The position numbers were made by a program, and so were the translations under genes. This document shows, piece after piece, positions 10,900 to 60,645 of a stretch of DNA of 64,000 bases. The DNA comes from a bacterium (lineage in GTDB: Bacteria; Bdellovibrionota_C; UBA2361; RFPC01): NCBI GenBank assembly GCA_009926305.1, contig RFPC01000003.1, positions 17,992 to 81,991 of the forward strand. Direction: 5' to 3'. Numbering within the stretch: the first letter of the stretch is position 1; the number at the start of each line of letters is the position of its first letter. The notes beneath the pieces were generated by a model, which was not told where the DNA came from, did not search any database, and was given only the letters and a program-made list of their open reading frames with translations.

Positions 10900-10927
10900 T
10901 CTGTGGTCGTGGCAAAGAGGAGTAAAC

Positions 10928-12321: not shown

Positions 12322-12373
12322 GCGAACTCTTGTACTCGCTTTCCTGAAGCTGGGAAGCGTCCTCCCCTATTAG

Positions 12374-12389
12374 TGGCATCCATATTGCA
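12374..12389 (+). promoter_or_regulatory. sigma-54-type promoter (TGGCATC-N4-TTGCA) upstream of flgK
   Basis: gTGGCATCcataTTGCAc has exact GG-N10-GC spacing. It lies 44 nt upstream of the flgK ATG. Confidence 0.5.
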
Positions 12390-12432
12390 CAATTCCCTTT
12401 TGCGTTACGAGCTTTATTGCTAAAGGGCTAGA

Positions 12433-30179: not shown

Positions 30180-30330
30180 ACTACAATGCGAGAAGGCAAA
30201 TAGAGGGTATATTTTGCCTGTTTAAGCGCTATTGCATGCCATAGGAAGAAGGAAATTCCTAGTAAAGTTTGCCGCTATCGGAAGGGGTAGGAAAATAGGG
30301 GCAGGCAGAAATGAGGAGAGGGATCTACAC

Positions 30331-31596: not shown

Positions 31597-31658
31597 CCAT
31601 AGCTCATCTTCTAAGATTGAGTTGGCCGTTTTTACTGGCAAGAATTAGCTTTGCATCT

Positions 31659-32984
31659 CTATACAATCCTCTGATAAAGGTCATGAAGGGATCTTATGTA
31701 CTCCTCATCAGCATGGCTCAACGGTTTTTCTATGCTTGTCCCATGATGAAGAAAGCGAAGAAGTTCATTTTCATGTTCTAGGCAAAATGTTAGTTTTGCA
31801 TCTGGAGTACCGCCAAGTTGAATCAATTCTTTTTCATTTTTTAGACGGCAGAGAATATCTCGAATCGTATGAATGTGTTTCAAGCGCTCCTGAGAGCAGA
31901 GCTGTGAAGTGAGTCTTGATATAGAGCTCGTAAGATCGATGGCAGGAAAGTATCCCCGGTGCGCGAGTTCTTTGTCGAGGACGATATGGCCATCAAGGAG
32001 GCTCTTGATTTCCTCACTTAAAACATCCTGGGCTTCTAAAGCCTCAGAGAGAATGGTGTAGATTGCAGTAATACTGCCTGTAGAGGCAGTGCCACTTCGT
32101 TCAAGAATTCTGGGGAGTTCTTCGAAAACAGAGGCGGTATACCCCTGTCTTACAGGCAGTTCTCCAGTACTTAAACTGACGTCACGAATTGCTCTTGCAG
32201 CCCTAGTTAGTGAATCGATTAAGAGAAGAACATTTTCTCCTCTATCACGATAATGCTCTGCGATTCTTGTAGCACTAATTGCAGCATGCTTTCGTCTAAT
32301 AGGCTGCTCATCACTTGTGCTCACGATAACGATAGACCTTTTTAGTCCATCTTCACCAAGTGCTTCCTCTAAAAATTCGTTTACTTCTCGCCCCCGCTCC
32401 CCAACAAGACTTATAATTATGCGATCGACAGAAGCACCTTTTGCAATCATTCCTAATAAAGTCGACTTTCCTACGCCAGGGCCGGCGAATAGTCCAATCC
32501 GTTGACCAAGTCCAATTGGACAGCAGATATCAATAGCACGTATTCCCGTTTTCATCTGCGTTCTGATTAATGGGCGAGATAATGGATTCGGGACTGGAGT
32601 TTCTATCTCCATCACGGTCGTGGAATGGCATTTTGACTTGCTGGTTGAATCCAGTGGATGAGCGAGACAGTCATAGACGCGCCCACTCGGCTCGTATGGG
32701 AGTGTAAGCAGAGGCAATGAGCCAGTTTTGGTAATGATATCGCCCGGAGAAACTCCCGTGAGAGGTTCAAAAGGAGCAAGGTAGCATTTGCTCTCTGAAA
32801 AACCGACTACCTGAGTTGGAATTCGACGTTTCTTCTGAGTATGAATGTAACACAGTTCTCCCAGTTGAATCGCAGTTAATCGCGAGCGGACTATTCCGCC
32901 GGAGATCGATTCAATAGAACCAACTTCTTGTGAGGAGCTAGTAACGTGATTTTCTGGAAGCAGGTTAGTGAGATTGATGCTCAT
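31659..32984 (-). CDS. fliI: flagellum-specific ATPase FliI
   Basis: Walker A GLFAGPGVGKSTLLGMI, Walker B VLLLIDSLTR, and overall T3SS-ATPase architecture. Confidence 0.9.
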   Translation of the reverse strand: MSINLTNLLPENHVTSSSQEVGSIESISGGIVRSRLTAIQLGELCYIHTQKKRRIPTQVVGFSESKCYLAPFEPLTGVSPGDIITKTGSLPLLTLPYEPSGRVYDCLAHPLDSTSKSKCHSTTVMEIETPVPNPLSRPLIRTQMKTGIRAIDICCPIGLGQRIGLFAGPGVGKSTLLGMIAKGASVDRIIISLVGERGREVNEFLEEALGEDGLKRSIVIVSTSDEQPIRRKHAAISATRIAEHYRDRGENVLLLIDSLTRAARAIRDVSLSTGELPVRQGYTASVFEELPRILERSGTASTGSITAIYTILSEALEAQDVLSEEIKSLLDGHIVLDKELAHRGYFPAIDLTSSISRLTSQLCSQERLKHIHTIRDILCRLKNEKELIQLGGTPDAKLTFCLEHENELLRFLHHGTSIEKPLSHADEEYIRSLHDLYQRIV

Positions 32985-33597
32985 GGTGCGTGCTCTTTGC
33001 GGAATATTCTAGGAGGATATCTCGTGAGATGCGCTCGAATTGCTCCTCCCAGTCGATTACAAACCGTCTTTTCCCTGCTATGATCTTTGCCTTTCCTTGT
33101 TGCATCTCTGGATCAGCTAAAAGCTTGTACTCTGAATTGCCAGATGCAGTAATCAGATTTTGGAGATGCTCGCGGTCGCTTGGATGGAAAGCGATCTGTA
33201 TATTCGTCTCCTCTTGAGCTTCCTCAAAAGCTGAACGCAATCCCTTTTGTAATAGTCTTTTATCTGAGGTTGCTAACTTCCCAATAAAGCGCTCAGTAAT
33301 CTGAAGAGCTAGCCCAAGACATTCTTGTTCGAGTTCAGCTCTGATAGAGCTGCGAAAGCGAGATAAGCAGATTCCCAGATTGTTTTTCAAAGCTTGAATG
33401 GCATCTTCTTTGATTTGCTTACGTTTGTTTTGAAGTCCGTTTCGTATCTTTTTTGCATTGTTTGCTAGTACTTTTCTTGCAGCTTTATTTTTTGTTTCAT
33501 GCTCAAGTAGCAAGCTTTCCTGAAGATTTCTGACAGCGATAGGAGAAAACGCCTCCTCAGACGGCTGGTCCCTGAGTCCAGCGATAAATTGCGCCAT
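32965..33597 (-). CDS. fliH: flagellar assembly protein FliH
   Basis: A coiled-coil N-terminus and a C-terminal KIIAGKRRFVIDWEEQFERI in a FliH/YscL-like domain. It lies immediately upstream of fliI and overlaps it by 20 nt. Confidence 0.6.
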   Translation of the reverse strand: MAQFIAGLRDQPSEEAFSPIAVRNLQESLLLEHETKNKAARKVLANNAKKIRNGLQNKRKQIKEDAIQALKNNLGICLSRFRSSIRAELEQECLGLALQITERFIGKLATSDKRLLQKGLRSAFEEAQEETNIQIAFHPSDREHLQNLITASGNSEYKLLADPEMQQGKAKIIAGKRRFVIDWEEQFERISRDILLEYSAKSTHHEHQSH

Positions 33598-33609: not shown

Positions 33610-35295
33610 TCACAATTCTTTGCGACTGAGGTATCGACGTAATACAGCAAAAGTTTCCTCTTGCTCCTTACATTTTGATATTTTAGCGATGATAACAAAT
33701 ACTGCGACACTCACTGGGAGGATAATGAGTATATGGAGATAGTTAGGTAGCTTGAATTGATTAAGGAATAAGCAAAGACTGCCTACCAATAGAGCAGCAG
33801 GAATAACTCGCAGGCTCTGCAGGATGCTTTCGATAACAGTCCGACGCTCATCTTTTGAGAGCGCTACGAGACTCAGAATGAGGCTTGTAGCAGCTGCAAC
33901 GGCTGAGGAAATAGCGAGCCCTTCATGCCCAAGATTGAGCGACCATGGCAGAAGACCCTGTAGAGCAGAAATAATATCACTAAGGCGAGAGTCCTTGACG
34001 GGCTCTATGGGTCCCATCATTGCTAAAGACACACAGAGAGAGATAGCAAGGACAGCTATTCCAATACATGCAGGTATAATAGCCTGTTTCCTCGCTATGA
34101 AGAGTCTACTGATCACTGCATAAAGTGAGAGAGGGGTAAGCCCAAGAGCATACCATCGAAGAGCTTTTGCAGATTCCCATGAATCAGCAGCGGAAAATTT
34201 TCCGCGCTCAAAGAGAAGACCGATTACTGGTTCAGCCGTGAGAGAAATACCGATAGAAATTGGCAGAAGAAAGAAAATGGAATATCTGACTGCCTCACTG
34301 AGTCGTTGTATAGTCTCTTCTCGAGAACCGTCCGCGTGAGTCCGAGCTAAGTGTGGTAGCAGTACAGAGCTCAGTGCCACAGTAAAGATTCCAATCGGGA
34401 GTTGTGCGATGCGATCAGCATAAAATAGCCAAGAGATACTTCCCACCCGCAGAAAGGAGGCAAGTACCGTATTAAGCAAAATTGTGCATTGGTAGACCGC
34501 AGCACCCAGTATCGCTGGGATCATAAGCCAGAACATTTTTCCAAGCGCAGCATCCCATCTTGGCCATAAAGGTAGCGGAGGGAATCCAACTTTCTGTGAT
34601 AGCGGGAAAAGTGCGCCATACTGAATCATCGCGGCGATAAAAACCGACCAAGCAAGAACCCGCCCACGGTCGTTTGGTTCCCAAAATGCGGCAGCTAGTG
34701 CTCCGCTAATCAGACAAAGATTGACTAATATCTGCGCTATCGAACCAGCGCCATATTTATGCAGGGTGGTAAGTAGACCATTGATGAGTACTACGATCAT
34801 TATGCTGGGAAGGTAGGGCAGCATTATTCGCAATAAAGCTGCAGTCTCATGGATGGTAGCGGAATCACGAGCAAAGCCTCCAGCGAAGAGGAGTACCACC
34901 TCCTCTGAGAAGATGAACATAATCAAAATGCAAAGCAAAACGATACAGAGCATTGCGCCAATTGCTTTTCTATAAAAGTCGACTGCACCTTTCTGCTCTT
35001 TTTGCATTTCCTCAGCAAGCACAGGAATAAATGCTGAGCTTAGGGCACCTTCAGCGAAGAAGGCACGCATGGTATTTGGGATACGGAAAGCAACCAAAAA
35101 TATATCCGCAGATAATCCAGCTCCGAGGATGCGTGCAAAGAGTAAGTCACGGACAAACCCCAAGACTCTACTCATGGCAGTAAGGCTTCCGACAATCGCG
35201 GTGCCACGCGCAAGTGATTTTCCAGATGGGGAAGATTTTTTGGTTGTCATTGGTCTCACTATAGCAATCTCAAATGTGAAGTTACCAATCCCCAA
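33610..35295 (-). CDS. murJ: lipid II flippase MurJ (MviN)
   Basis: LARGTAIVGSLTAMSRVLGFVRDLLFARILGAGLSADIFLVAFRIPNTMRAFFAEGALSSAFIPVLAEE and ~14 TM helices. Confidence 0.85.
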   Translation of the reverse strand: MGIGNFTFEIAIVRPMTTKKSSPSGKSLARGTAIVGSLTAMSRVLGFVRDLLFARILGAGLSADIFLVAFRIPNTMRAFFAEGALSSAFIPVLAEEMQKEQKGAVDFYRKAIGAMLCIVLLCILIMFIFSEEVVLLFAGGFARDSATIHETAALLRIMLPYLPSIMIVVLINGLLTTLHKYGAGSIAQILVNLCLISGALAAAFWEPNDRGRVLAWSVFIAAMIQYGALFPLSQKVGFPPLPLWPRWDAALGKMFWLMIPAILGAAVYQCTILLNTVLASFLRVGSISWLFYADRIAQLPIGIFTVALSSVLLPHLARTHADGSREETIQRLSEAVRYSIFFLLPISIGISLTAEPVIGLLFERGKFSAADSWESAKALRWYALGLTPLSLYAVISRLFIARKQAIIPACIGIAVLAISLCVSLAMMGPIEPVKDSRLSDIISALQGLLPWSLNLGHEGLAISSAVAAATSLILSLVALSKDERRTVIESILQSLRVIPAALLVGSLCLFLNQFKLPNYLHILIILPVSVAVFVIIAKISKCKEQEETFAVLRRYLSRKEL

Positions 35296-35468
35296 AATGT
35301 CATTTCATTGACTGGGGAAGCCGCGACATGGACAATAAAAGCAGTAAAGACGATGGGTTAAGGGATTGCTACCGCTATTTGCGTTCTGAGCGCTTGAGGC
35401 TATCCAGTCACTCCTTCCCGAAGCCAGGCTCGCCAAGTAGACTGAACGTGAGATGGAAAGTGATATAT

Positions 35469-36185
35469 ATGTCTTTTAGTCGACCCTTGAGAGCTATCAT
35501 TGCTGCTGGAGTGAGTGCAGGTCTTTCAGCTCTTCTATTTCTTTCCTCCTATAACAATCTCCATCGGATGCAGTTCTCTCAGATGCCTACCGTTTCAATG
35601 CGCAGCGGTACCCAAAACTTTCTATTGAAAAATACCGACTCAGATGGATGTGTTGGATGGTTTCGCTATCAGTTGATTCGAGAGGACGGGTTTCAACTTT
35701 CATCGGCATTACAGATCAACGCGCAGATTGGAGAAATATTCATCCCTAATCATTTACAAGTGTCTCTGACCTTTAATTCTTTAAAACAACTGGCTGGTGG
35801 AATTATAAAAGCTCGTATAGCGAAGAATACCTTTGATGTGCATATTCAGGGAGTTGAGTTAGTGCATCTTGCGGTCTCTGCGATATTGTTGGGAGAGGAA
35901 TTGACGCGAGATGTATCATTACAAGGGCCAATTGAATTGCGGCAGACTGGCAAAGATAGCTGGGCGCTCTATTTTCGAAACTGGAAAGAGTGGGATAATG
36001 TCATTCGTCCTTTGTCAAAGAAGCTTTCTTTACAGCAGGATCCGTCTCTCGTTCAGATTGACTCAATCGGTGAACAAGATGCCGATGCTCTTCGTCAAGA
36101 GTGCGAAGAAGTCGGGATAGAGCCAGTTATACTTGATGATTTCCTTGAAAAAATCTTTATGTTCATTCAGAAGGGCAGATTGTGA
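35469..36185 (+). CDS. hypothetical secreted/membrane-anchored protein
   Basis: Signal-anchor MSFSRPLRAIIAAGVSAGLSALLFL. The ORF is open from 35328, but the upstream 47 aa are hydrophilic, so 35469 is preferred. GTGA overlap with the next gene. Confidence 0.4.
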   Translation: MSFSRPLRAIIAAGVSAGLSALLFLSSYNNLHRMQFSQMPTVSMRSGTQNFLLKNTDSDGCVGWFRYQLIREDGFQLSSALQINAQIGEIFIPNHLQVSLTFNSLKQLAGGIIKARIAKNTFDVHIQGVELVHLAVSAILLGEELTRDVSLQGPIELRQTGKDSWALYFRNWKEWDNVIRPLSKKLSLQQDPSLVQIDSIGEQDADALRQECEEVGIEPVILDDFLEKIFMFIQKGRL

Positions 36186-37882
36186 ACTATCCTCGTTGCT
36201 TCTTACTCTTTCGACCGAAAAGGTTGAGTATGCAGAATCACTGGGCCTATCGGAGTAAGGAAGTTGCTTCACGGATCAGAATCATCGTCCTACTCCTTGT
36301 GATGCTTGTCACGGTGGCAGGAATTTATATCGGTACCTCTTTGGTGTTGCAAAAATTGGAGGAGTATTCATCTCTTGTATATTTATCTCCTGTTCTGCCC
36401 CTTTCAGCTATGTTCCTATTTCTCTTCGGCATGTTGTTGCTCTCTGCTACCGTCAGCGCAATCGGGGTTTTCTTCATGTCCAACGACAATGAATTACTTC
36501 TTGCTTCGCCCATTTCTCGTTATACGTTTTTTATCTCAAAGTTTCTCACAATACTTGTGAGTACGAGCTGGATGCCAATAGGGTTCATGATTCCTCTTCT
36601 TCTTGCGTTCGGCATCCATTACCAGGTGGATCCATGGATGTATGTAACTGCCCCATTCCTTTTGTTGCCATTTTTTGCAATCTCGAGCAGCTTAGCGACT
36701 ATTCTGGCGCATATTATAACGATCTTGATTCCTCCATCACGATTAAAGTGGCTCATATATTTGGCAGCTATTCTTTTCTTCTTCCTGATCTTCAAGCTTG
36801 CTAGGCTTGCAGCCTTGGGAGTTCAGGCAGATGCGGGTTTTGAATATCTTGTCGGTCTTGTTTCTCAACTTACCGTTCCGAGTATGCTCTGGTTGCCTTC
36901 CCGATGGATTGCGTTGGGTTTTGGGGACTTCCTGCTCTCTGAACAGCGCTACTTAAAAGATTCGATTATCTTACTTTGGTCTGCTGCTGTTTTTTCATGT
37001 AGCGGTGCATTTGTTGTTTTCAGTCTGTTATTCTCCTTCGGTATTCGTGGCAATACAATCCTGAAGCTCAAGAGCTCTTGGCTTTCTCCTGTTGCAGCTC
37101 GACTCCTTAAGCCACTCTCATCTGTTTACTCAGCTCAATTTTTGTTGAAAGACTTTCGATTATTATGCCGTGACACCTCACAGATTTTGCAGCTGGTTCT
37201 TCTGCTGATTATTTATGCTGTATATCTTTCGCATATTCAGATCTTTGGCATAGCAGATAGTGTTCCATATGGTCAGTTTGAATCTTCGCAGGTATTTTTT
37301 TTCATAATGAATGCATCGATAGGTGCGTTCATAACAACTGCTGCTACGGCACGGTTGGTCTTTCCTGCTTTATCATTAGAAGGTCAAGCCTTTTGGATTT
37401 TGCAGACAGCACCGATCTCCATGAAGCAGGTGCTTAAAAAAAAGTTCTGGTTGTGGTACCCAATGCTTGGGTCCATTTCATGCTTTACATTTGTCTCAGG
37501 AGGTCTAGCGCTCGGGGCTGCGAAAGAGACCATTATCTCAACGTTTTTGGTGAGTTGGATAATGAGTGGCTCGATAATTTCTCTTGGATTGGCGCTGGGT
37601 GCATATTTTGCAAAGTTCGATTGGGAGCATAGCGCCGAACTTGTTGCAAGTTTTGGTAGTTTTGTTTTTATGATACTCAGCATTCTTACGATTTTCCTCA
37701 CGATGGGATTGCTCGGGCTTGCTCTTTTCGGGCGGGATCAGGGTATGATTGGTTATCCGATGAGTGAACATGAGTGGAACGTTTTCGTGGGAACCTGTAT
37801 CGGATTTTTACTTCTGCTCAATGGGAGTATTATCCGTTTCTCGTTTACATTAGGCGAGAAGTCTTTAATGGCTCGTATGTGA
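36182..37882 (+). CDS. polytopic membrane protein (>=12 TM helices), possible ABC-2/permease-like
   Basis: Hydrophobic throughout. The likely true start is the ATG at 36230 (MQNHWAYR...). Confidence 0.5.
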   Translation: MNYPRCFLLFRPKRLSMQNHWAYRSKEVASRIRIIVLLLVMLVTVAGIYIGTSLVLQKLEEYSSLVYLSPVLPLSAMFLFLFGMLLLSATVSAIGVFFMSNDNELLLASPISRYTFFISKFLTILVSTSWMPIGFMIPLLLAFGIHYQVDPWMYVTAPFLLLPFFAISSSLATILAHIITILIPPSRLKWLIYLAAILFFFLIFKLARLAALGVQADAGFEYLVGLVSQLTVPSMLWLPSRWIALGFGDFLLSEQRYLKDSIILLWSAAVFSCSGAFVVFSLLFSFGIRGNTILKLKSSWLSPVAARLLKPLSSVYSAQFLLKDFRLLCRDTSQILQLVLLLIIYAVYLSHIQIFGIADSVPYGQFESSQVFFFIMNASIGAFITTAATARLVFPALSLEGQAFWILQTAPISMKQVLKKKFWLWYPMLGSISCFTFVSGGLALGAAKETIISTFLVSWIMSGSIISLGLALGAYFAKFDWEHSAELVASFGSFVFMILSILTIFLTMGLLGLALFGRDQGMIGYPMSEHEWNVFVGTCIGFLLLLNGSIIRFSFTLGEKSLMARM

Positions 37883-37982
37883 TAGGGAACAGAGAAAGTT
37901 CCACGATCAGTGTAATAGAAGACCGTGTTGTGCCTTGATTTTAAATGCCTGAAGGCTAGGGTCTTCTGAAAAAGGAAAGGAA

Positions 37983-39098
37983 ATGAGAAAGCTGACGGAA
38001 CTTTCTGTTGATGAAATAGCGAATTTTCATTCGACCTTAAATCAATTCTCTCTCGGCGGAGAAGTGAAAAGAATGTTTCGACTCTATCAGGGACATTTGC
38101 ATGAAACGTATGTCAGTGAAGTCCGCGTGGGTGAAAATACGAAGAAATATCTCCATCAAAAGATCAATACCACAGCGTTTGAGAATCCTGAACTCATGTT
38201 ATCCAACATCCAACGAATTTCTAAAGTGCTTAAAATGCATCCAGAACGAGAGTTTTCTGATTCTCTTACTTTGATTCCGACTGTTGATGATGAGCCCTAT
38301 CACTCTGATGGAAAGTTGTATTGGAGAACCTACAACTTTGTAGAAGATAGTATTTCCTATGACATCTGCCCCAATGATTCAAAGGGGTATGCTTTGGGGA
38401 ATGCGACAGGGGAGTTTTTGTATCTTCTCTCTGAGATGCCGTGCTCTGAAATCTATGATTACTCCCCAGATTTTCAGGACACATTCCGTAGATGGAGCGA
38501 GTTGCAAGAGGCTCTCAGTCAGGGGGTCCCCGAAAGGCTACAAACATCGAAATGTCTGTATGAGGAGATGCGGTCATTTGAGGAAGACGCACTTCAAATT
38601 CATAAGGCAGTCAAGGGGGGCAAACTGCGACAGCAAATTATCCACGGGGATACAAAAACAAATAACTTTCTCTTTCGGGAGAACTCTGACGAGGTGTTGT
38701 GTCTTGTTGATATAGATCTCTGTATGCCAGCAACACCACTATATGATATTGGAGATCTCCTGCGCAGTGCCTCGGCAGTCGGTCGTGAAGATGAGAGAGA
38801 CCTCTCACAGGTTGGGGTTGATAGCGGTATTATGGAGGCGGTGTTACGGGGGTTTTTATCCTCTCGTTTCGAGTTAACAGATGCCGAGAAATCACTCCTC
38901 TCATTTGCAGGCTTTACGGTTAGCTTTAATTTGACTGCCCGATTTTTGGCGGATTACTTGCGGGGCGATGTCTACTTTCCAGTGACTCGGCCAAATCATA
39001 ATCTTGAGCGGGCCCTTGCTCAATGGCGGGTAACAACCTGTCTGCACTCTTTTCGGTATGTTATTGAGGATCTTGTTGCATCCGCCCCACATTGTTGA
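37983..39098 (+). CDS. aminoglycoside-phosphotransferase-fold kinase (APH/choline-kinase/HSK-II-like)
   Basis: Brenner motif IHGDTKTNNFLF and LVDIDLCMP (DxD) in the catalytic and activation loops. Confidence 0.55.
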   Translation: MRKLTELSVDEIANFHSTLNQFSLGGEVKRMFRLYQGHLHETYVSEVRVGENTKKYLHQKINTTAFENPELMLSNIQRISKVLKMHPEREFSDSLTLIPTVDDEPYHSDGKLYWRTYNFVEDSISYDICPNDSKGYALGNATGEFLYLLSEMPCSEIYDYSPDFQDTFRRWSELQEALSQGVPERLQTSKCLYEEMRSFEEDALQIHKAVKGGKLRQQIIHGDTKTNNFLFRENSDEVLCLVDIDLCMPATPLYDIGDLLRSASAVGREDERDLSQVGVDSGIMEAVLRGFLSSRFELTDAEKSLLSFAGFTVSFNLTARFLADYLRGDVYFPVTRPNHNLERALAQWRVTTCLHSFRYVIEDLVASAPHC

Positions 39099-39205
39099 GT
39101 TTTTCATACTCAAAATGCCCTGCTTTGTTGTTCCTAGCCCCAAGGGGTGCTAGCCTTCGGGAGTAAATAGTCGTTTCATTTTCGACCAGGTAGGATAAGG
39201 ATACT

Positions 39206-40267
39206 ATGTTTGCCCTCCAATTTAAGAATGTTGCTCTAGATGCGCACGCGATTCAGTTGCCGGAATACGAGGTCACGTCAGCTGAAATTGAAGATCGGCT
39301 CGCTCCTCTCTATGAACGGCTGAACATCCCATTTGGAACGCTTGAGAAATTAAGCGGAGTGAAGACCAGAAGATTCTGGGATACGTCGGTTCTCCCCAGC
39401 CAAGCCGCAATCCCTGCAGTCAGGGAGGTATTAGAATCAATGACAGTGCCGCGGGAGAGTATCGGTGCAATCGTAAACTGTTCTGTAACGAGAGACTTCT
39501 TTGAACCTGGCACATCAACCATCATTCATAGAGAGCTGGAGCTGGGTGAGACCGTCCAAGCCTTTGATATTACCAATGCGTGTATCGGCTTTTCGAATGG
39601 GATTCAGATGCTTGGGCTCATGATCGAGCAGGGAGCTATTGAAGCCGGAATAGTTGTCTCTGCTGAAAATATTGCGTGTATCATTGAGTCCAGTATTCGT
39701 TACCTGCTTGAAAATGAACAACTGTCTCGGGAGGAAGTGATTAAGCTGCTTCCGACATTTACTCTTGGATGTGGAGCTGCAGCGGCAATAGTCACGAGAA
39801 GTGATCTTAGTGCTCACCCACACAAGATAGTTGGCTGTACCTCACGGAGCGCCTCCCAGCATAGTAATCTTTGTCAGGGGAATGCTGACTTCCACCTGGC
39901 GAGAGAAAACGGTTTAAATCCCATCATGCATACCGAATCTGGAGACTTAATAGTTGAGGCATCTAGACTGGGGAAAAGAATGTGGAGCGACTTCCATCAG
40001 ACTTTTCACTGGAATCGCGAAGAGATAAATCATATTTTTTGTCATCAGGTGGGCAAGCAAGTAAATAGAGCATTCTACGCTGAGATGGGATTAGATATGG
40101 AAAAGGAATTTACCACCTACCAACGCTATGGAAATCTCGTCTCTGCCTCTTTGCCGGCAGCCTTTTTTACTGGAGTAAAAGAAAAGGGAATAAATGCCAA
40201 AGAAAAGGTGTTGTTGACGGCGTTCGGTAGCGGATTAAATTCAATTTTTATGGGAATAGAGTGGTAA
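39206..40267 (+). CDS. oleA: FabH-like thiolase-superfamily condensing enzyme (OleA-type)
   Basis: 353 aa with the active-site Cys in ITNACIGFSNG and a C-terminal His/Asn region. Sits immediately upstream of the OleBC/OleD genes. Confidence 0.65.
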   Translation: MFALQFKNVALDAHAIQLPEYEVTSAEIEDRLAPLYERLNIPFGTLEKLSGVKTRRFWDTSVLPSQAAIPAVREVLESMTVPRESIGAIVNCSVTRDFFEPGTSTIIHRELELGETVQAFDITNACIGFSNGIQMLGLMIEQGAIEAGIVVSAENIACIIESSIRYLLENEQLSREEVIKLLPTFTLGCGAAAAIVTRSDLSAHPHKIVGCTSRSASQHSNLCQGNADFHLARENGLNPIMHTESGDLIVEASRLGKRMWSDFHQTFHWNREEINHIFCHQVGKQVNRAFYAEMGLDMEKEFTTYQRYGNLVSASLPAAFFTGVKEKGINAKEKVLLTAFGSGLNSIFMGIEW

Positions 40268-40465
40268 GTAAGACTTTCCTCCTTCCCTAGCTGTTATGGT
40301 TCCCTTTTTGTGTGCAGAGTGTGATGGCTTCATTTCGATTTTAGAGTTGAGGAGCTGTTACTCTTAGTCGTCAGTCGGAGTGCGTACTGGCATCTCCCCA
40401 ATATGGGGGCAGAGCATGATCGGTTCGAGTATTAATTGTTAGTAAAGTAGTTAAAGAGGCATACC

Positions 40466-43087
40466 TTGGAGCGGCACGTAACAAATTTTCCACCAGAACT
40501 CAGAGGGCTATTTCCGTTTGCATCGAAGTTTCTCACTGTAGCTGGTCACCGTATGCACTATGTGGATGAAGGTGAGGGGCCTGTGATTGTCCTTTTGCAT
40601 GGTAATCCCACGTGGTCTTTTTACTATCGTGAATTGATAGATTTGTTGCGAGGGAGTTTTAGAGTGATTGCCCCTGATTTCATTGGATTAGGGCTTTCTG
40701 ATAGGACGCCAGGAACTCGTTATCGGGCTAAAGATCGGATTGATCAGTTGGAGGAGTTCCTTAAGAAGTTAGAGGTCGAACAGTTCTCTCTTGTGATGCA
40801 TGACTGGGGTGGTTCAATTGGCACAGGGCTAGCCGTTCGCTACCCAGAGCGAGTTCAGCGAATAGTATATCTCAATACTACGTTGACAGAGACTGAAGCC
40901 TTACCGCCGTTGATTAAAATCGCGGCAACGCCCTTTATCGGGAAGTTCCTCACTCAGATAACCCGACAGTTTCTTCGCTTTACGACGGTTTTGGGCGTAT
41001 TTCACAAGTTGCCGAAGAATGTGAGAGCAGGATATTACGCTCCCTATAAATCTGTCGCACATAGGCGAGCTATCTGGGATTTCGTTGATGATATCCCCTT
41101 TGATTCAAGACATCCAAGTTACAAGACCATGATGGAGCTGGCAGAGAATATACATCTACTCGCTAATCATGAGGTTCAGATAATATGGGGATTAGCGGAT
41201 CCATGTTTTCATCGTGAAATGCTTACAAAAGTTGCTCGACATTTTCCGAGCGCAGAGATTATTGAGCTGGCGGAAGCCTCACACCTTGTGCTTGAAGATG
41301 CAAGAGAGGTTGCATTGCCGGCAATTAAAGGTTTTCTTGAATTCGGACGTGGTCGTTCCCAGATTCTCGAATCGACAAGTCATGATACAGAGCCAACAGA
41401 AGCAGGAAGCGTCCTTCGTGAAAGCTTTCATAGGCACTGTGAGGAGTTGGGTAACAAGCCAGCCGTTATAGAGCCTCTTTTTATAGGGGATCAAGTTCGT
41501 TATGGCCAAACCTCATTCCGTGAAATGAGAGATAGAATTTACAAGTATGAACGAGGGTTGACGGAGTTAGGACTCGAGCCCGGAGACAGAGTGCTAATGC
41601 TAGTACCGCCAGGAGCTGACTTTTTGGCTCTTACGTATGCCGTTATCGGTAGGGCTGCAATCCCTGTTTTCCTAGACCCTGGAATGGGAAAAGAGAATCT
41701 CTTCAAAGCCATTCGTGATATTAACCCCCATGTGCTGATTGGTTCTCCGAGAGCACAGCTTTTACGTCTTAAGCGGCGCGAGATTATGCCGCAGCTGAAG
41801 TTTCATGTAACTGCAAGTGATTGGATTTATACAGGTGGACCGAAGCTGAGTTACCTCAAGCGCTTTTCTGCCAAGCCCCTATCAGCACCAAGCCGGAGTT
41901 CGGATACTGTTTTTGTCGCATTTACCTCTGGCGCAACAGGTCGACCAAAAGGAGTGATATATACCAATACGATGCTAACTGCTCAGCTGAGAATACTTCG
42001 AGAGCACTTTGGAATCGAGCAGGGAAGACGGGACCTTCCCCTTTTACCAGTGTTTTCGTTATTCCATCTTGCCAATGGCGTGTGTAGTGTTTTTCCAAAC
42101 GTCGATCCCTCTCGGCCTATATCCCTTTCACCAGAGCGAATAGTAAAGATTGTCAACGATCTTGAAGTGAATTACTCGTTTGGCTCACCAACGTTATGGA
42201 AAAAGATAGCGGACTACGCTTTGAGAGCGAAACAAGACTTCCCATCACTTGAAAAGATTTTTATGGCTGGTGCGCCTGTCTCTGAAGAAGTTTCAGCCCG
42301 TGTATCTGAGCTACTACCACAGGGCAGGGTATACACTCCCTACGGCGCGACTGAGGCTCTTCCCGTAACCTTGGCGCCTGTGTCTGAGCTGCCGAGACCT
42401 ACGTCGCTTTACGACACTTCAGAGGAGTCTGACCGTACATCGTGTAACACTATTCAATTACATCATCCCGGATTATGCGTCGGTAAGCCTTTAACGGGAG
42501 TAGATGTCATAATTGTAGATCGACATCAGATGCGTGACTTAGGGGTTGTACAGCCCCTTCCGCCTCATGTTATCGGAGAGATATTAGTTAGCGGAGAAAA
42601 TGTAAGTGAGGAATATTTCGAGAATGCCGAGGCGAACTCTTCTTCGAAGTTCGTGTATGATAATAAGCGATGGCATCGGATTGGAGACGTAGGTTGCGTT
42701 GATAACGAAGGGTATCTTTTTTACAGTGGTCGCGTTGCGCATCTTGTAGAGACTCCAGATCAGACGTATTACAGTGTTCCAACGGAGATGATTTTCAACA
42801 CGATGACGAAAGTTCGCCGCAGTGCTCTTGTATCGTTGGGAGCGAGTGAAGAGCCGGGTATTGTGATTGAGCCGAATCCCGAGTTCTGGCCAGAGAGTGA
42901 TGAGGCTCGAAGGATTTTCTTGTCAGAGCTTGAGGATGTGGCTCAGAGCCATGCACTGACCAAGAAAATTAAATGGTTCTTCTTCCACCCAAACTTTCCC
43001 GTAGATGGTCGTCACAATGCAAAGATTTTTCGGGATCAACTCAGTTTATGGGCTCGTCAGTATACTGTGAAGCAAGAAGCGGCATGA
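40466..43087 (+). CDS. oleBC: fused alpha/beta-hydrolase (OleB-like, haloalkane-dehalogenase fold) + AMP-dependent synthetase/ligase (OleC-like beta-lactone synthetase)
   Basis: N-terminal VVLLHGNPTWSFYYR and the nucleophile elbow VMHDWGGSIG. C-terminal AMP-binding VAFTSGATGRPKGVIYTN and YTPYGATEA. Single 873-aa ORF. Confidence 0.75.
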   Translation: MERHVTNFPPELRGLFPFASKFLTVAGHRMHYVDEGEGPVIVLLHGNPTWSFYYRELIDLLRGSFRVIAPDFIGLGLSDRTPGTRYRAKDRIDQLEEFLKKLEVEQFSLVMHDWGGSIGTGLAVRYPERVQRIVYLNTTLTETEALPPLIKIAATPFIGKFLTQITRQFLRFTTVLGVFHKLPKNVRAGYYAPYKSVAHRRAIWDFVDDIPFDSRHPSYKTMMELAENIHLLANHEVQIIWGLADPCFHREMLTKVARHFPSAEIIELAEASHLVLEDAREVALPAIKGFLEFGRGRSQILESTSHDTEPTEAGSVLRESFHRHCEELGNKPAVIEPLFIGDQVRYGQTSFREMRDRIYKYERGLTELGLEPGDRVLMLVPPGADFLALTYAVIGRAAIPVFLDPGMGKENLFKAIRDINPHVLIGSPRAQLLRLKRREIMPQLKFHVTASDWIYTGGPKLSYLKRFSAKPLSAPSRSSDTVFVAFTSGATGRPKGVIYTNTMLTAQLRILREHFGIEQGRRDLPLLPVFSLFHLANGVCSVFPNVDPSRPISLSPERIVKIVNDLEVNYSFGSPTLWKKIADYALRAKQDFPSLEKIFMAGAPVSEEVSARVSELLPQGRVYTPYGATEALPVTLAPVSELPRPTSLYDTSEESDRTSCNTIQLHHPGLCVGKPLTGVDVIIVDRHQMRDLGVVQPLPPHVIGEILVSGENVSEEYFENAEANSSSKFVYDNKRWHRIGDVGCVDNEGYLFYSGRVAHLVETPDQTYYSVPTEMIFNTMTKVRRSALVSLGASEEPGIVIEPNPEFWPESDEARRIFLSELEDVAQSHALTKKIKWFFFHPNFPVDGRHNAKIFRDQLSLWARQYTVKQEAA

Positions 43088-44154
43088 GTGAAAAGAAAGA
43101 GGATTTTAAGGGAAAAACATTCCTCGTAACTGGAGGAGGTGGATTTCTCGGTAAAGCAATTGTTAAAGCGTTACTCGCTCGTGGTGCTGATGTTCGTAGC
43201 TTATCTCGTTCAACCTATGATGAGTTGGCGGACTTAGATGTAGTCCAATTTAATCATGATCTTGGTTCATCTGCCTCGTTGCCGAGTGAAGCTCTTTGTG
43301 GAGTGTCGGGTATTTTCCATACAGCGGCTTACGTTAAGATGTGGGGGAAGTATCAAGATTTTAGAGCAACCAATATCGAGGGAACGCGCAAATTAATAGA
43401 CTCGGCTCAAGAGGCTGGGGTAAAACGACTTGTATTTACGAGCTCACCTAGTGTAATTGCACGAGGTGCTTCTCTTTGCGGAGTAAATGAAAGCATCGCG
43501 TATCCAGATCATTACGAAGCATTTTATCCAGAGACGAAGGCTGAGGCTGAACGACTCGTTCTTGAATCTGATCAAGATAAACTTATGACGTGCTCTCTTC
43601 GTCCTCATTTAATCTTTGGACCGGGAGATACAAGCCTTACAAAGATGGTCGTGGCGAAAGGAAGAAGCGGTAGCCTCCGTCGAATTGGTAGTGGGAACAA
43701 CCTGGTAGATTTCTCCTACATTGAAGATTGTACTGAAGCGCATCTTCTTGCTATGACAGCTCTAGAGGAGAATCCGGCAAGCAGAGGGAGATCCTTTTTT
43801 ATCAGTCAGGGAGATCCATATCCGCTATGGAAGTGGATTGATCAAGTCTTAGAATATCACGACGTAAAAAGAGTCTCTCGTTCGGTCCCGTATCAACTTG
43901 CTCGTCGTTTGGCGGTATTCATGGAGTTTCTCAGCAAGACATTTCCAGTCTTAGGAGAGCCACGCCTAACACGTTTTCTTGTTGATGAGATGTATACAGA
44001 CCACTACTTTGATATAACAGCAGCTCAAGAGATTCTTGGATACAAACCAAGGTATACCGTTGATGAAGCTCTTATAAAGACCTTTGAGCAATCGAAAGAC
44101 AAACAGAGCTATTCAAATATCACCTCGGAGTTTATCAATACTCCGGTCGTATAG
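43084..44154 (+). CDS. oleD: NAD(P)-dependent short-chain reductase/3beta-HSD-family (OleD-like)
   Basis: Rossmann motif LVTGGGGFLGKAIVKALLARG and a YxxxK-type catalytic region. Its ATG at 43084 overlaps the oleBC stop (ATGA). Confidence 0.7.
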   Translation: MSEKKEDFKGKTFLVTGGGGFLGKAIVKALLARGADVRSLSRSTYDELADLDVVQFNHDLGSSASLPSEALCGVSGIFHTAAYVKMWGKYQDFRATNIEGTRKLIDSAQEAGVKRLVFTSSPSVIARGASLCGVNESIAYPDHYEAFYPETKAEAERLVLESDQDKLMTCSLRPHLIFGPGDTSLTKMVVAKGRSGSLRRIGSGNNLVDFSYIEDCTEAHLLAMTALEENPASRGRSFFISQGDPYPLWKWIDQVLEYHDVKRVSRSVPYQLARRLAVFMEFLSKTFPVLGEPRLTRFLVDEMYTDHYFDITAAQEILGYKPRYTVDEALIKTFEQSKDKQSYSNITSEFINTPVV

Positions 44155-44193
44155 AGCCTTATGCTATATGTGGAGCGGTTCATTGCTCAGGAG

Positions 44194-44559
44194 CTAGAAG
44201 TTAAGCCCACCTTGCAGGCTATCCCAAGCAAATACCTTTCCGGTTCCTTTGGGGTGAAAGGCACTGCCAGTAAACCCTGTGTCACCGGCAAGGATTTCGA
44301 TGTTGACTCCTTGTGAGAGACTAGAGACGCCAGGAAGGTTAGCGCAGGTTTCGTTTGAGCATGAAAGATACTGCTCTTCATCGAGAAAATATACTTCTTC
44401 GGCTATAGCGACGTTTCTAAGGTCACTCATCGCCCGCAAATCAAAACCCCGCGCCCGATAGTCGTTAAACTGAGGCACTGCAATAGCACTGAGAATTGCA
44501 ACGATTGTCATGGTGATCATAAGCTCTAGCAGCGTAAAACCGGAAGTTCTAGAATTCAT
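44194..44559 (-). CDS. prepilin-type N-terminal cleavage/methylation domain protein (type IV pilin/pseudopilin-like)
   Basis: MNSRTSGFTLLELMITMTIVAILSAIAVPQF is a class III signal peptide. 121 aa. Confidence 0.75.
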   Translation of the reverse strand: MNSRTSGFTLLELMITMTIVAILSAIAVPQFNDYRARGFDLRAMSDLRNVAIAEEVYFLDEEQYLSCSNETCANLPGVSSLSQGVNIEILAGDTGFTGSAFHPKGTGKVFAWDSLQGGLNF

Positions 44560-44947
44560 AGGATATGCCTTAGAAAATGAATGATTCTTTCTTTATTCGG
44601 CAGTAGGGGCAGTTGTGTTGCCTAATTCCTTAAATTGATAGCCATTCTGAGTTGCAGGCTGTCGCCTTATCTCCTTCAGTTGACGCTTTACATTTATAGT
44701 TTCTGCGCCGCTTTTCCTTGGAGTCACAGCATCGAAGGAAATATTTATTGGTATTAGCCATTGTTGATATGTTTTATCTCATGGATACATATTATGTTGT
44801 TATCTTGAAGTCGTTATACGGTAGCTATTGGAGGCTGGAAGAGCTCATAATAACTGCCTCGCATTGATATATATTCACTATGGTCCTCGTTCTTTTCGTG
44901 ATGAAAGATCGAAATGGAAAAGATAGCTGAGCTGGGGGAGGGAAGAA

Positions 44948-45466
44948 ATGACTGATATGATCGAGCCAATGGATGCCTATGAAATAATGAAGAATGATAC
45001 GAGTTGTCAGATTATTGATGTTCGAGAACCAGCTGAATTCCGGAGTTGCCATATTATAGGTGCTCGTAATATTCCACTGAGTAAACTTGAAAGTGGAGAC
45101 GAAGTTCTTGCAGGAGAAGGAAAACTCCTAATTTGTTGTCAACGAGGAATGCGAGCTGAACGAGCGTGTCAGATAGTTCGTGGAACAGCTGCTGAGACTG
45201 AAATGAGTGTCATAAGAGGCGGCCTGAACGAGTGGAAACAGAATGGCCTTCCTGTAGAAGAGGATTCCTCCGCGCCTATCGCTATGGAACGACAGGTGCA
45301 AATTGTTGCAGGTTCTTTAGTTGTCTTGGGTATTCTTCTTGGGGTTTTTGTCAATCAGTGGTTTCTCGCTCTTTCTGCATTTGTGGGATGTGGATTGGTT
45401 TTTGCTGGCGTAACAAACACGTGCGGAATGGCTATGCTCTTAAGGCGACTGCCTTATAACCATTAA
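44948..45466 (+). CDS. rhodanese-domain protein with C-terminal membrane anchor (YgaP-like)
   Basis: Rhodanese active-site loop LLICCQRGMRAE and a C-terminal hydrophobic DUF2892-like segment. Confidence 0.65.
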   Translation: MTDMIEPMDAYEIMKNDTSCQIIDVREPAEFRSCHIIGARNIPLSKLESGDEVLAGEGKLLICCQRGMRAERACQIVRGTAAETEMSVIRGGLNEWKQNGLPVEEDSSAPIAMERQVQIVAGSLVVLGILLGVFVNQWFLALSAFVGCGLVFAGVTNTCGMAMLLRRLPYNH

Positions 45467-45560
45467 CGTATGATAAGGGTCGCTTTCGCTCCCATCCTAT
45501 ACAGTCCGGCTCGGCAGTATTGAGTTTCAAGGACTGTGCATCATTAAATGTAGAATGCTC

Positions 45561-46172
45561 TTAAAGGTCTGGTGCACTGAGGGGTATCCAGCCCTCATCT
45601 TTGGCGTTATGAGCCATAATGGAGCTACTTTCAATGTCGTATATCCAGCCATGAAGGCAGAGCTCTTTACTTTCAATGCGCCCGCTAATGAAGTCGTATT
45701 GATTCAGGTGGTTGAGCTGATTGATTACATTTTGCCGGATGTGAGCTTCAAGACTGCCATCCTCATCAATATCAAAGTCTGATGAAGATTGGACAATCCA
45801 ATCATGAAGATGAGGAAGAGACTCTAATTTCTCAGGATTCAGCATCCCTTTCACTGCACCGCAATCAGAGTGTCCACAAACAATAATATGTTTAACACCG
45901 AGAACACTCACGGCAAATTCTATGGTGCCAATATCCCCGAGGTTGGCGTTGCTGCAACAGGGAACGATATTTCCCGCATTACGGATAGTGAAGACTTCAC
46001 CTGGCTTGTGCTGCAGGAATAGCTCAGGACTCACTCTTGAATCGGAACAGGTAATCAATAAAATCTCAGGCGCTTGCCCTTTCGCTAGTTCAACAAATTC
46101 TTCTTTCAGTTTTGGGTGCTCGTTTTCCAAGAAAGCGTGATGTCCTTTTACCAATTTTTTCATTGAATCCAT
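45561..46172 (-). CDS. beta-class carbonic anhydrase
   Basis: Zn ligands in ITCSDSRVSPE and HSDCGAVKG. Confidence 0.85.
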   Translation of the reverse strand: MDSMKKLVKGHHAFLENEHPKLKEEFVELAKGQAPEILLITCSDSRVSPELFLQHKPGEVFTIRNAGNIVPCCSNANLGDIGTIEFAVSVLGVKHIIVCGHSDCGAVKGMLNPEKLESLPHLHDWIVQSSSDFDIDEDGSLEAHIRQNVINQLNHLNQYDFISGRIESKELCLHGWIYDIESSSIMAHNAKDEGWIPLSAPDL

Positions 46173-46211
46173 CTGTTATATTCCTTTTTCAATAACGGTT
46201 CTTAACACATA

Positions 46212-47795
46212 TTATGCCGTGTGAAGCTCTATACTTGAATTTTGTCTATCCACTTCGCTGTTTAGGCTTTTGCGGGAAATTGGTTTCGACGAATTGGCAT
46301 AGTGATGCAGTTGATCCCACTCGAGATAAACTTTGCCCCCGGACTTCTCGTGTTGGTCTCCCCACTGCGTGAGTAGCTCCAAGCATGCGTGATCGATATA
46401 AGCGAGGTGGTGAAGGTGAACATGTAGTATCGCATCTGAAGGGATTTTTTCGAGAGTCTTTGCTAACGATGGGATACTGAGAAATGTTGCTGCTCCAACG
46501 AGTTCTAGGTTCAGTTCACTTCCCCCCTCTTCTGAAGTAAATACCTCAGCCTCAAGATGGGTCAGGCGGTAGAGAAGTTGGAACAGAGTAGCAGAGAAAC
46601 CGATGACTATACCCGTCAGGAGGTCGAAGGTGACAATTGATGCCACGGTCAAAACGAAAATCAAGACCTCCTCGCGCCCTTTTTCTCTCAGCTCTTCAAT
46701 AATTGCGATGTTAATCAGCTTCCATCCAATTACTACAAGGAGAGCAGCGAGGCTGGAGGTTGGTATAAAATTGAGGAGATTTGGAAGAAGCAATATGAAA
46801 GCGAGCAACCAGACACCGTGTAGGGTTGCTGACCATCTCGTCTTTGCACCCGCCCGTACGTTGGCAGAGCTTCTGACAATAACTCCCGTCATCGGAAGTG
46901 CTCCAAGGATCCCGCATAAGGTGTTCCCTATTCCCTGTGCGAGGAGTTCTCGATTATAGTCTGTGCGTACACCAGAATGAAGTTTATCAACGGCGGCAGC
47001 ACAAAGCAGGGTCTCGGCACTGGCAACAATTGCGATGCTAATTGCAAGAACCAGTAAACCGGGAGTCAGCAGTAATTCTAATGCTTGTTCTGTTGGAAGG
47101 ATCTCTACACTTCCAAGGAGGGAGTCTGGAATTTCTACGAACTTAACGCGGAGTGATGCTACTGATGCTAAGAGAGAGCCTCCGAAAACACCAATTAAGG
47201 CTCCTGGCACAAATTCAAAAGGTGGCTTTTTGATGCGGTCCCAGCCGGCTACAAGAAGAATGGTTACTATTCCGACCAGTGCCGCATCTGAAACTCCCCC
47301 TGTGCTAGGCCAGACGACTTTCCAAAAGGCCTCTGGAATGCCACTCAAATTATCAAGACCGCTTGCCCGAGGAGTAGCATCGAGCATGACATGAAATTGC
47401 GAACCAAAAATAAGAACTCCGATGCCAGACAGCATTCCATAGATAACGGTTGGGGACACCGCCCGAAAGATTTGCCCGCCGCCAAGCAGTCCAGCACCAA
47501 ACTGAAGTAGACCCGCCAACGCAACAGCAATTCCCAGTCCGAAAACTCCGAACTGTTCTACTACTTGCCAAACGATCACCACCAATCCCGCAGCTGGTCC
47601 GCTGACTTGCAATGGGCTTCCGGCAATCGGTCCAAGGATGATACCACCAATAATGCCAGTGATGAGACCCTTCTCTGGTGAGAGTCCAGAAGCGATGGCT
47701 ATTCCCATGCAGAGCGGTAAAGCGACAAGGAAGACGACGAAAGACGCCATGATTTCATTGATTGAAGAGATTTTATTGGGGGAAGATTTTTGCAT
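46212..47795 (-). CDS. SulP-family anion (sulfate/bicarbonate) transporter with C-terminal STAS domain
   Basis: A multi-TM core plus a C-terminal STAS domain. Co-oriented with and immediately upstream of the beta-CA gene. Confidence 0.8.
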   Translation of the reverse strand: MQKSSPNKISSINEIMASFVVFLVALPLCMGIAIASGLSPEKGLITGIIGGIILGPIAGSPLQVSGPAAGLVVIVWQVVEQFGVFGLGIAVALAGLLQFGAGLLGGGQIFRAVSPTVIYGMLSGIGVLIFGSQFHVMLDATPRASGLDNLSGIPEAFWKVVWPSTGGVSDAALVGIVTILLVAGWDRIKKPPFEFVPGALIGVFGGSLLASVASLRVKFVEIPDSLLGSVEILPTEQALELLLTPGLLVLAISIAIVASAETLLCAAAVDKLHSGVRTDYNRELLAQGIGNTLCGILGALPMTGVIVRSSANVRAGAKTRWSATLHGVWLLAFILLLPNLLNFIPTSSLAALLVVIGWKLINIAIIEELREKGREEVLIFVLTVASIVTFDLLTGIVIGFSATLFQLLYRLTHLEAEVFTSEEGGSELNLELVGAATFLSIPSLAKTLEKIPSDAILHVHLHHLAYIDHACLELLTQWGDQHEKSGGKVYLEWDQLHHYANSSKPISRKSLNSEVDRQNSSIELHTA

Positions 47796-47947
47796 GTATC
47801 TCAGTCTCCTGTTTCCGAATCATTCCGCATAAAGGACGTGTTGACGCCCGTAATCCTAACACAAATAATAATATGCATATATGCGAATATATGCAAATGA
47901 ATTAAGAAAAAATAGGCAACATATTGTAATACCTATCTTATTTCTCT

Positions 47948-48340
47948 TTATTCGTCGTTTTTACCCCATACTTTAAGAGCCTGTTCTACCGCTTTATCAA
48001 AAGTTGGTGAACCAATTACTCCAAGTTCCGTAAATCGCAATCCCTCTAAAATCCAATTTGCAACGTTTGGTTCCACGAGGCTGTAAAAGTGGTGTTTTCC
48101 TTCTCTGCGCTCGTGAACAATTCGGAGGCTTCTAAACAACGCGAGATGCTGCGATACGCGAGAGGATGAAATTTCTAACGTCTCAGAAAGCCCCTGAACA
48201 TCACATTCCGCACGACCAAGTTCTTCAACCATCCGAATTCTATCAGGATGAGAAAATGCATTAAACAACTTAGCGAGCTCTTGGGCTACTACCTTACGGT
48301 CTCCCATACACCAATCCCATACGATTATCTTCCCCTCCAC
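47948..48340 (-). CDS. ArsR/SmtB-family transcriptional regulator
   Basis: ELAKLFNAFSHPDRIRMVEELGRAECDVQGLSETLEISSSRVSQHLALFRSLRIV. Confidence 0.7.
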   Translation of the reverse strand: MEGKIIVWDWCMGDRKVVAQELAKLFNAFSHPDRIRMVEELGRAECDVQGLSETLEISSSRVSQHLALFRSLRIVHERREGKHHFYSLVEPNVANWILEGLRFTELGVIGSPTFDKAVEQALKVWGKNDE

Positions 48341-48454
48341 TATAGAAACTCAGTAGAACTTATGAAAACCTTAAAAGTACTTTTCTCGCAAATTAACTCA
48401 CAAATCAGAGATTGAGCTATTTGAAGCTGGACTTTGTAAGGGGAAGTTGATATC

Positions 48455-48552
48455 ACCTCCCAGACTCTGGGGAGGCGTTATTGCCTGAGAATCCAATGCT
48501 CTATTGGTAAACCCGTAGAACCTGATTCGGCTAGTACCGACGTAGGGAGGCA
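48455..48552 (+). promoter_or_regulatory. TPP (THI-box) riboswitch
   Basis: ggggaggcg...CTGAGA...ACCCGTAGAACCTGATTCGGCTAGTACCGACGTAGGGAgg matches the THI-element core (CUGAGA, ACCUGAUCUGGNUAAUACCAGCGUAGGGA). The 3' P1 strand contains GGGAGG, which is the Shine-Dalgarno for the ATG at 48555. Confidence 0.75.
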
Positions 48553-60643: not shown

Positions 60644-60645
60644 TT

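Follow-up and report, generated by a model that had tools for sequence, protein, structure and literature searches.

A predicted oleA-oleBC-oleD operon for head-to-head olefin biosynthesis in an uncultured Bdellovibrionota bacterium

The ole locus and its OleB-OleC fusion

The window that we analysed is a stretch of 64,000 nucleotides (nt) of bacterial DNA (GCA_009926305.1, contig RFPC01000003.1, positions 17,992 to 81,991 of the forward strand; all coordinates given here are the window's own) which carries, between positions 39206 and 44154, three adjacent genes of the head-to-head olefin (Ole) pathway. These genes, oleA, oleBC and oleD, are all encoded on the + strand, and the second specifies OleB and OleC as one polypeptide of 873 amino acids (aa; Table 1). 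All four Ole activities are brought together on one strand within 4.95 kb, an arrangement that falls within the published definition of an ole cluster, namely oleA accompanied by co-oriented homologues of oleB, oleC and oleD within about 5 kb (PMC7158056). The Pfam content of the three products is ACP_syn_III plus ACP_syn_III_C for the first, Abhydrolase_1 (residues 39-278) plus AMP-binding (residues 321-718) for the second, and 3Beta_HSD for the third. Positions, orientation and domain content are those given in a preliminary description of the locus, made from the nucleotide sequence alone, as is the moderate G+C content, which is 43-47% throughout the window. For oleD, a mechanical search returns a longer open reading frame (ORF; 42973-44154), in which an in-frame ATG at 43084 gives a protein of 356 aa and is the biologically sensible start. 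This ATG overlaps the TGA stop codon of oleBC by 4 nt (ATGA), as the preliminary description had already noticed, and the two genes are apparently translationally coupled.

The fusion of OleB and OleC in a single 873-aa ORF, which had been read from this one sequence, is real. An identical protein is encoded on two independent metagenome contigs, L001 (Logan SRR30352466) and L002 (ENA ERZ27275071), on which independent gene calls recover these three genes with unchanged lengths and an unchanged 4-nt overlap. In addition, more than 120 clusters of fused OleBC proteins, 825-916 aa long and 49-80% identical, are present in the protein database. Across 71 fused homologues, about 25 residues between the two domains lack any consensus while the reading frame is kept. 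An AlphaFold2 model built on the alignment of these 71 proteins has a mean predicted local distance difference test score (pLDDT) of 89.4 and a predicted template modelling score (pTM) of 0.88, and shows two folded units, a disordered linker (residues 299-312) and a disordered loop (residues 647-661). Such a pTM predicts a defined arrangement of the two domains relative to each other; no chain in the PDB matched this two-domain arrangement in a Foldseek search. The disordered loop (window 42404-42448), which belongs to the OleC part, is rich in Ser, Thr and Glu, has a pLDDT below 50 and is partly missing from the alignment with the OleBC protein of Kytococcus.

Family assignment and catalytic residues

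The product of the first gene aligns over its full length with twelve distinct PDB sequences of Xanthomonas campestris OleA, 3ROW and 4KU5 among them (E = 2e-54 to 6e-53). The best of these chains reaches E = 1.9e-54 and 188 bits, as against 4e-16 and 62 bits for the best FabH, which places the protein about 38 orders of magnitude nearer to the OleA structures. Profile comparisons point in the same direction, with a score of 339.9 bits for the NCBIfam model PRK09258, above its cut-off of 285, and only 97 bits for the fabH model TIGR00747, whose cut-off is 292. In the alignment, residues E100-P101, C126, H280 and N310 correspond to E117-P, C143, H285 and N315 of the X. campestris enzyme, and none of the five varies among the window protein and its 120 closest homologues. 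Almost all OleA proteins have the Glu-Pro pair, which the Claisen step requires (PMC7064751). The preliminary description had foreseen that a grouping of this FabH-like protein with genuine beta-ketoacyl-ACP synthase III (KAS III) would speak against an ole cluster; instead, the sequence comparisons support its membership of the OleA family.

The N-terminal part of the fusion has as its best solved relative the haloalkane dehalogenase DhmeA (8CKP; E = 1e-34), the only member of haloalkane dehalogenase subfamily III (HLD-III) with a solved structure, and the subfamily to which the X. campestris OleB is also assigned (PMC10503415). The catalytic pentad of this subfamily, composed of an Asn, the Asp nucleophile, a Trp, an Asp acid and a His base (PMC10503415), is intact in the window protein: N47, the nucleophile D113, W114, D245 and H273 align with N63, D129, W130, D258 and H286 of DhmeA and are invariant in the 71 fused homologues. 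A fusion devoid of the OleB nucleophile, another finding that would have told against the original reading, is therefore not what the locus encodes. The OleB domain is modelled with pLDDT values mostly above 85. It scores 162-165 bits against generic dehalogenase models, below their cut-offs, in libraries that hold no OleB-specific profile. Stand-alone genes for OleB-like proteins of the subfamily III type, 32-36% identical to the OleB domain, also occur in archaea (Promethearchaeota, Bathyarchaeota and Methanolobus; loci L060, L062, L067, L071, L073 and L081), where oleA, oleC and oleD are absent nearby.

When scanned alone, the C-terminal OleC domain just passes the cut-off of the model PRK09274 (479.3 bits for a cut-off of 478). 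Its second and third models are the olefin beta-lactone synthetase models OlefBLtnSynShew (357 bits) and OlefBLtnSynXan (339 bits), and the next ligase family follows at 155 bits. The adenylation motifs TSGATGRPKG (residues 487-496), YGATE (626-630), GDVG (740-743) and GR (755-756), together with K853, are all present, so that the absence of OleC adenylation residues, likewise named beforehand as a reason to abandon the reading, does not apply here. T487-G496, Y626-E630, G740-D741, G755-R756 and K853 are invariant in the 71 fused homologues. A Foldseek search of the PDB with the C-terminal part returned ANL enzymes only, with target-normalised TM-scores up to 0.85, and a PDB sequence search with the OleC domain returned only generic ANL ligases (E about 1e-25). 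No structure of OleB, OleC or OleBC turned up in the PDB searches.

For OleD, the two top-ranking NCBIfam models are both 2-alkyl-3-oxoalkanoate reductases (303 and 271 bits), followed by HpnA at 130 bits, and the match to Pfam 3Beta_HSD has an E value of 3.5e-48. The protein has a Rossmann motif, GGGGFLG (residues 17-23), and the catalytic set T119-S120 and Y148-x3-K152, of which Y148 and K152 are invariant across 36 OleD homologues. On sequence grounds, the OleC and OleD of the window appear to be distant orthologues of the Shewanella and Xanthomonas enzymes.

Distribution, neighbourhood and origin of the fusion

A scan using one genome per species yielded 421 relatives, and for the best 80 of these 421 loci all ORFs were translated and compared with the window proteins. 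A single stop-to-stop ORF comprising OleB and OleC, preceded by oleA and followed by oleD, characterizes 22 loci from other genomes (L003-L024). The fusion is uninterrupted in 20 of them, the exceptions being L019, where it is cut by a contig end, and L021, where oleC is split by a frameshift (within 3087-5692); the oleA of L003 (1254-2453), on a contig with a coverage of about 3.7x, is also split into two ORFs. Both splits are probably frameshifts of assembly or sequencing and not pseudogenes. Because the same gene order recurs in these 22 further loci, the association of the three genes goes far beyond chance. The named hosts of fused OleBC are metagenome-assembled genomes labelled Bdellovibrionota, Bdellovibrionales, Oligoflexia, "Deltaproteobacteria" or "Pseudomonadota", or simply "bacterium". 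Loci of this clade with ME20xx/Rohwer labels presumably come from Lake Mendota. The closest is the Bdellovibrionota metagenome assembly JBMTVV010000014, whose OleBC is 80% identical and which shares a wider synteny with the window (APH-like kinase, oleA, oleBC, oleD, pilin, rhodanese, carbonic anhydrase and SulP). No cultured close relative was found among 120 OleA matches, 120 OleBC matches and the best 80 of the 421 genome loci. The fused clade is widespread in uncultured Bdellovibrionota, which is modestly new. Acidobacteriota, Desulfospira, Hyphomicrobiales and other groups gave tblastn matches over the full length, which were also considered as possible fusions and rejected by ORF analysis, which places oleB and oleC in different frames; complete oleABCD clusters with the two genes in separate frames are found in Acidobacteriota, Desulfospira, Hyphomicrobiales, Longimicrobiales, Nannocystaceae, Pseudobacteriovorax and some Acidimicrobiia.

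Among known systems, the OleABCD system of X. campestris has its four enzyme families and their order in common with the window, and OleA is alignable from end to end, but the window joins in one polypeptide the OleB and OleC that are separate in X. campestris; PF13784 and PF03692 genes, which the Xanthomonas region has in addition (PMC7064751), are not seen in the window. Fusions of oleB and oleC are known from certain Actinobacteria, typically Micrococcales (PMC7064751). The oleA-oleBC-oleD clusters of Micrococcus luteus, Kytococcus, Brevibacterium and Mobilicoccus are built of three genes in just this way, OleB being the N-terminal part of the fusion, and the OleBC of Kytococcus aerolatus is collinear with that of the window (28% identity over 866 residues, E = 3e-93). 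Their hosts, however, are high-G+C actinobacteria, whereas the window derives from a Gram-negative bacterium with about 45% G+C. In this respect it resembles Granulosicoccus antarcticus, a Gram-negative host in which an oleBC fusion was first reported outside Actinobacteria, perhaps as the result of horizontal transfer from that group, since its OleA clusters with actinobacterial OleAs (PMC7064751). Ole genes as such are not new in the Bdellovibrionota-type group, because an OleA of Halobacteriovorax marinus, a predator from the same broad group (Oligoflexia/Bdellovibrionota), was active in a p-nitrophenyl ester screen (PMC7064751). This enzyme lies outside the 120 closest OleA homologues of the window, and its genome outside the best 80 of the 421 loci. 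Pseudobacteriovorax (L058), unlike the window, has unfused oleB and oleC.

To place the fusion among its relatives, we used a HMMER scan of 1.84 billion representatives, which gave 1526 matches at E <= 1e-30, and a neighbour-joining tree of 184 OleC-domain sequences, 71 of which were subjected to a 200-replicate bootstrap; this tree is distance-based, represents a single domain and has most of its tips without taxon labels. The fused representatives in the HMMER scan form two identity bands, 34-53% and 30-34%, the lower of which includes, according to cluster look-ups, Kytococcus, Brevibacterium and Acidimicrobiales. In the tree, the window clade and the actinobacterial fused clade were recovered in 199 and 200 of the 200 replicates, respectively. 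A sister relationship between the two was never found (0/200), and 5/200 replicates grouped the two together with at most 10 further sequences; many unfused OleCs are found between them. Common descent with the actinobacterial, Micrococcales-type OleBC is accordingly unsupported on the OleC-domain tree. The identity of the window's OleC domain to the fused proteins of actinobacteria is 26-31%; it is 32-39% for unfused OleCs from other phyla and 39-46% for four OleCs of the window's own clade that are apparently unfused. The fusion looks independent because the two fused clades are never sisters and unfused OleCs are nearer in identity. Five further fused representatives (P0131, P0133, P0135, P0137 and P0141), one of them annotated by the Joint Genome Institute as an olefin beta-lactone synthetase, are scattered elsewhere in the tree among unfused sequences, which suggests that fusion has recurred in still other lineages. 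From these sequence relationships, we regard it as probable, rather than established, that OleB and OleC were fused several times, and independently in the window lineage.

When the ORFs around the fused genes of the 22 loci were clustered, oleA, oleBC and oleD emerged as the only conserved neighbours. Additional conserved pathway genes were sought among the remaining "families" and discarded, as these were antisense shadow ORFs or specific to subclades. A gene for an APH/EcKL-like phosphotransferase precedes oleA in the window. Homologues with 51-68% identity occupy the position directly upstream of oleA in L001, L003, L004 and L006, and L023 has one with 33% identity at a distance of about 2 kb upstream; only the closest relatives share this kinase. 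Homologues of the small prepilin-type protein encoded next to oleD are found near the ole cluster in L003, L005, L012, L023 and L024. The organism had been described as flagellated, and the window indeed contains genes for FlgF, FlgG, FlgA, FlgH, FlgI, FlgK, FlgE, FliI, FliH, FliM and FliP and a flagellin-family gene, arranged in three blocks. These and other genes of the window are listed in Table 1 below the ole features.

Table 1. Features of the ole locus, followed by other genes of the window (window coordinates)
Feature	Position	Strand	Description
oleA	39206-40267	+	353 aa, ATG start; thiolase-fold acyl-CoA:acyl-CoA alkyltransferase
oleA-oleBC spacer	40268-40465	+	198 nt; no element detected
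oleBC fusion ORF	40466-43087	+	873 aa, TTG start, AAGAGG 6 nt upstream
OleB domain (residues 1-298)	40466-41359	+	Haloalkane-dehalogenase-like alpha/beta hydrolase, predicted beta-lactone decarboxylase
Interdomain flexible linker (residues 299-312)	41360-41401	+	pLDDT <50, without consensus
OleC domain (residues 313-873)	41402-43087	+	ANL-superfamily adenylating enzyme, predicted beta-lactone synthetase
oleD	43084-44154	+	356 aa; extended short-chain dehydrogenase of 3beta-HSD type, predicted NAD(P)H-dependent 2-alkyl-3-oxoalkanoate reductase
ORF ahead of the flgF-flgI block	5290-6210	+	306 aa; no Pfam match
Flagellar block	6226-15110		flgF/G/A/H/I, flgK, flagellin-family gene (likely flgL)
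ORF adjoining the helicase gene	21583-22935	-	450 aa; no Pfam match
SNF2-family helicase gene	23058-26294	-	1078 aa
Flagellar block	30232-33597		flgE, fliI, fliH
ORF upstream of the kinase gene	35328-36185	+	285 aa; no Pfam or NCBIfam match
PF16949 gene upstream of the kinase gene	36182-37882	+	566 aa, putative ABC-type protein; 4-nt overlap with the 285-aa ORF
APH/EcKL-like phosphotransferase (kinase) gene	37983-39098	+	107 nt upstream of oleA; no NCBIfam match
Prepilin-type protein gene	44194-44559	-	Small protein with N-terminal methylation motif; immediately downstream of oleD
Flagellar block	59209-61940		fliM, fliP

Proposed pathway, alternatives and significance

We consider it very likely that oleA, oleBC and oleD form a functional operon of an uncultured Bdellovibrionota bacterium and encode the established head-to-head olefin pathway. 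By analogy with the Xanthomonas, Shewanella and Micrococcus systems, from which the chemistry of the pathway is known (PMC7158056, PMC6463001, PMC7064751), we infer the individual chemical steps, the kind of product and an OleBC(D) assembly. OleA would condense two fatty acyl thioesters head to head, in a non-decarboxylative reaction, to a 2-alkyl-3-oxo acid, which OleD would reduce to the 3-hydroxy acid. The OleC domain would then use ATP to adenylate the carboxylate and close the beta-lactone ring, and the OleB domain, tethered by the disordered linker of about 14 residues, would decarboxylate the lactone to a long-chain cis-alkene that probably remains in the membrane. That OleB, OleC and OleD act as an assembly has been described before (PMC6463001, PMC7158056, PMC10503415), and that a fusion implies such an assembly has likewise been argued already (PMC7064751, PMC6463001, PMC7158056). 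The expectation of C25-C33 polyolefins voiced in the preliminary description was a guess, as chain length and unsaturation are unreadable from the sequence, and no polyunsaturated fatty acid synthase occurs among the window ORFs scanned.

Several observations weigh against this interpretation. OleA is only moderately similar to the solved X. campestris enzyme (roughly 40% identity, estimated by eye from the alignment) and has, relative to it, an insertion of about 11 residues (residues 229-239, window 39890-39922). With EPGTS-x16-DITNACI, it also departs at one position, a final Ile for Leu, from the OleA search pattern EPxx[AS]x(14,18)DxxNACL, a search heuristic of mainly Gram-positive basis and not a mechanistic requirement (PMC7158056). 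Each of the 120 OleA homologues nearest to the window protein stems from uncultured material, and enzymatic activity is proposed by analogy. The cut-offs of the equivalog models are missed by OleC (357 for 850 bits with the Shewanella model, 339 for 900 with that of Xanthomonas) and by OleD (303 for 580 bits); these NCBIfam OleC and OleD cut-offs for Shewanella and Xanthomonas are deliberately narrow. In the profile comparison proposed at the outset, Ole families score best for OleA, OleC and OleD and the narrow OleC and OleD thresholds are missed; the original reading withstood all of the refuting conditions set out in the preliminary description. Finally, promoter- and terminator-like sites occur in the scanned ole region at the frequency of shuffled sequence and none is assignable, for which reason the case for an operon is built on how the genes are oriented and spaced and on the ATGA overlap.

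Two of these points can be complemented by observations on the elements concerned. The OleA insertion is carried by all 120 closest homologues, with a variable sequence in which P239 is nearly invariant, and M241, just past it, is invariant in the same set. The spacer between oleA and oleBC was considered as a possible site of a regulatory element and set aside: it is not conserved in relatives with 80% and 67% identity, its predicted RNA fold is not significant (z score of -0.35), and no Rfam match was found in 35000-48500, a region that covers it.

An alternative to which we give little probability is that the cluster yields a beta-lactone natural product, as do the oleACD clusters for lipstatin or nocardiolactone, its hydrolase domain being inactive or otherwise employed. 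OleA, OleC and OleD are common to both pathways, which share the same chemistry up to the beta-lactone (PMC7064751), and the OleB domain falls under every curated NCBIfam cut-off in libraries that lack an OleB-specific model. Clusters of that type are nevertheless defined by the missing oleB homologue (PMC7064751), whereas here OleB is covalently fused to OleC and keeps its full pentad invariant in 71 homologues; tailoring or resistance genes are not conserved nearby in the 22 loci. The presence of the OleB domain favours an olefin over a beta-lactone as the end product.

It is very improbable that the three genes are unrelated housekeeping lipid genes, that is, a true KAS III (FabH), a dehalogenase joined to a fatty acyl-CoA ligase, and an epimerase/dehydrogenase for sugars or sterols, even though public labels such as "3-oxoacyl-ACP synthase III", "fatty acid CoA ligase family protein" and "alpha/beta fold hydrolase" would suggest it: the distance of OleA from FabH and its OleA-specific Glu-Pro pair (PMC7064751), the lead of 170-200 bits that OleC- and OleD-specific models have over generic ones, and the status of the trio as the sole conserved neighbourhood across 22 loci all contradict such a reading. 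The chance that the 873-aa ORF is an artefact in which a frameshift or misassembly merged separate oleB and oleC genes is negligible, since, although more distant relatives (Acidobacteriota, Desulfospira, Nannocystaceae, Pseudobacteriovorax and some Acidimicrobiia) have separate genes and obvious frameshifts affect some metagenome-assembled genomes (oleA of L003, oleC of L021), the same protein was assembled twice independently, more than 120 clusters of similarly sized fusions exist, 20 of 22 related loci have the single ORF, and the linker varies in sequence yet stays in frame.

The Ole pathway and the OleBC fusion architecture have both been described already, and the understanding of the pathway is unchanged by this locus. 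As far as the searched literature shows, the OleBC fusion in Bdellovibrionota had not been pointed out before. It adds a wide array of Bdellovibrionota genomes to Micrococcales and Granulosicoccus, the known range of oleBC so far, and it reveals that public labels on the ole genes of metagenome-assembled genomes hide a hydrocarbon pathway. The finding is useful for annotation and as a source of enzymes, as a fused OleBC from a Gram-negative bacterium of moderate G+C content might express better in Escherichia coli than the actinobacterial ones, and it is of mild interest for the evolution of enzyme tethering. The probable second, independent origin of the fusion provides circumstantial support for a functional coupling of OleC and OleB, possibly by channelling.

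We think the balance tips slightly in favour of an independent origin of the OleBC fusion in a large Bdellovibrionota lineage, one that has hardly any cultured members and lives partly in freshwater, and of further origins in several other scattered lineages. If so, the covalent tethering of OleC to OleB would be a recurrent way of handling a beta-lactone intermediate that is labile. The window lineage would then have long-chain membrane olefins as a conserved trait, with possible consequences for how membranes behave in a phylum known above all for its predators.

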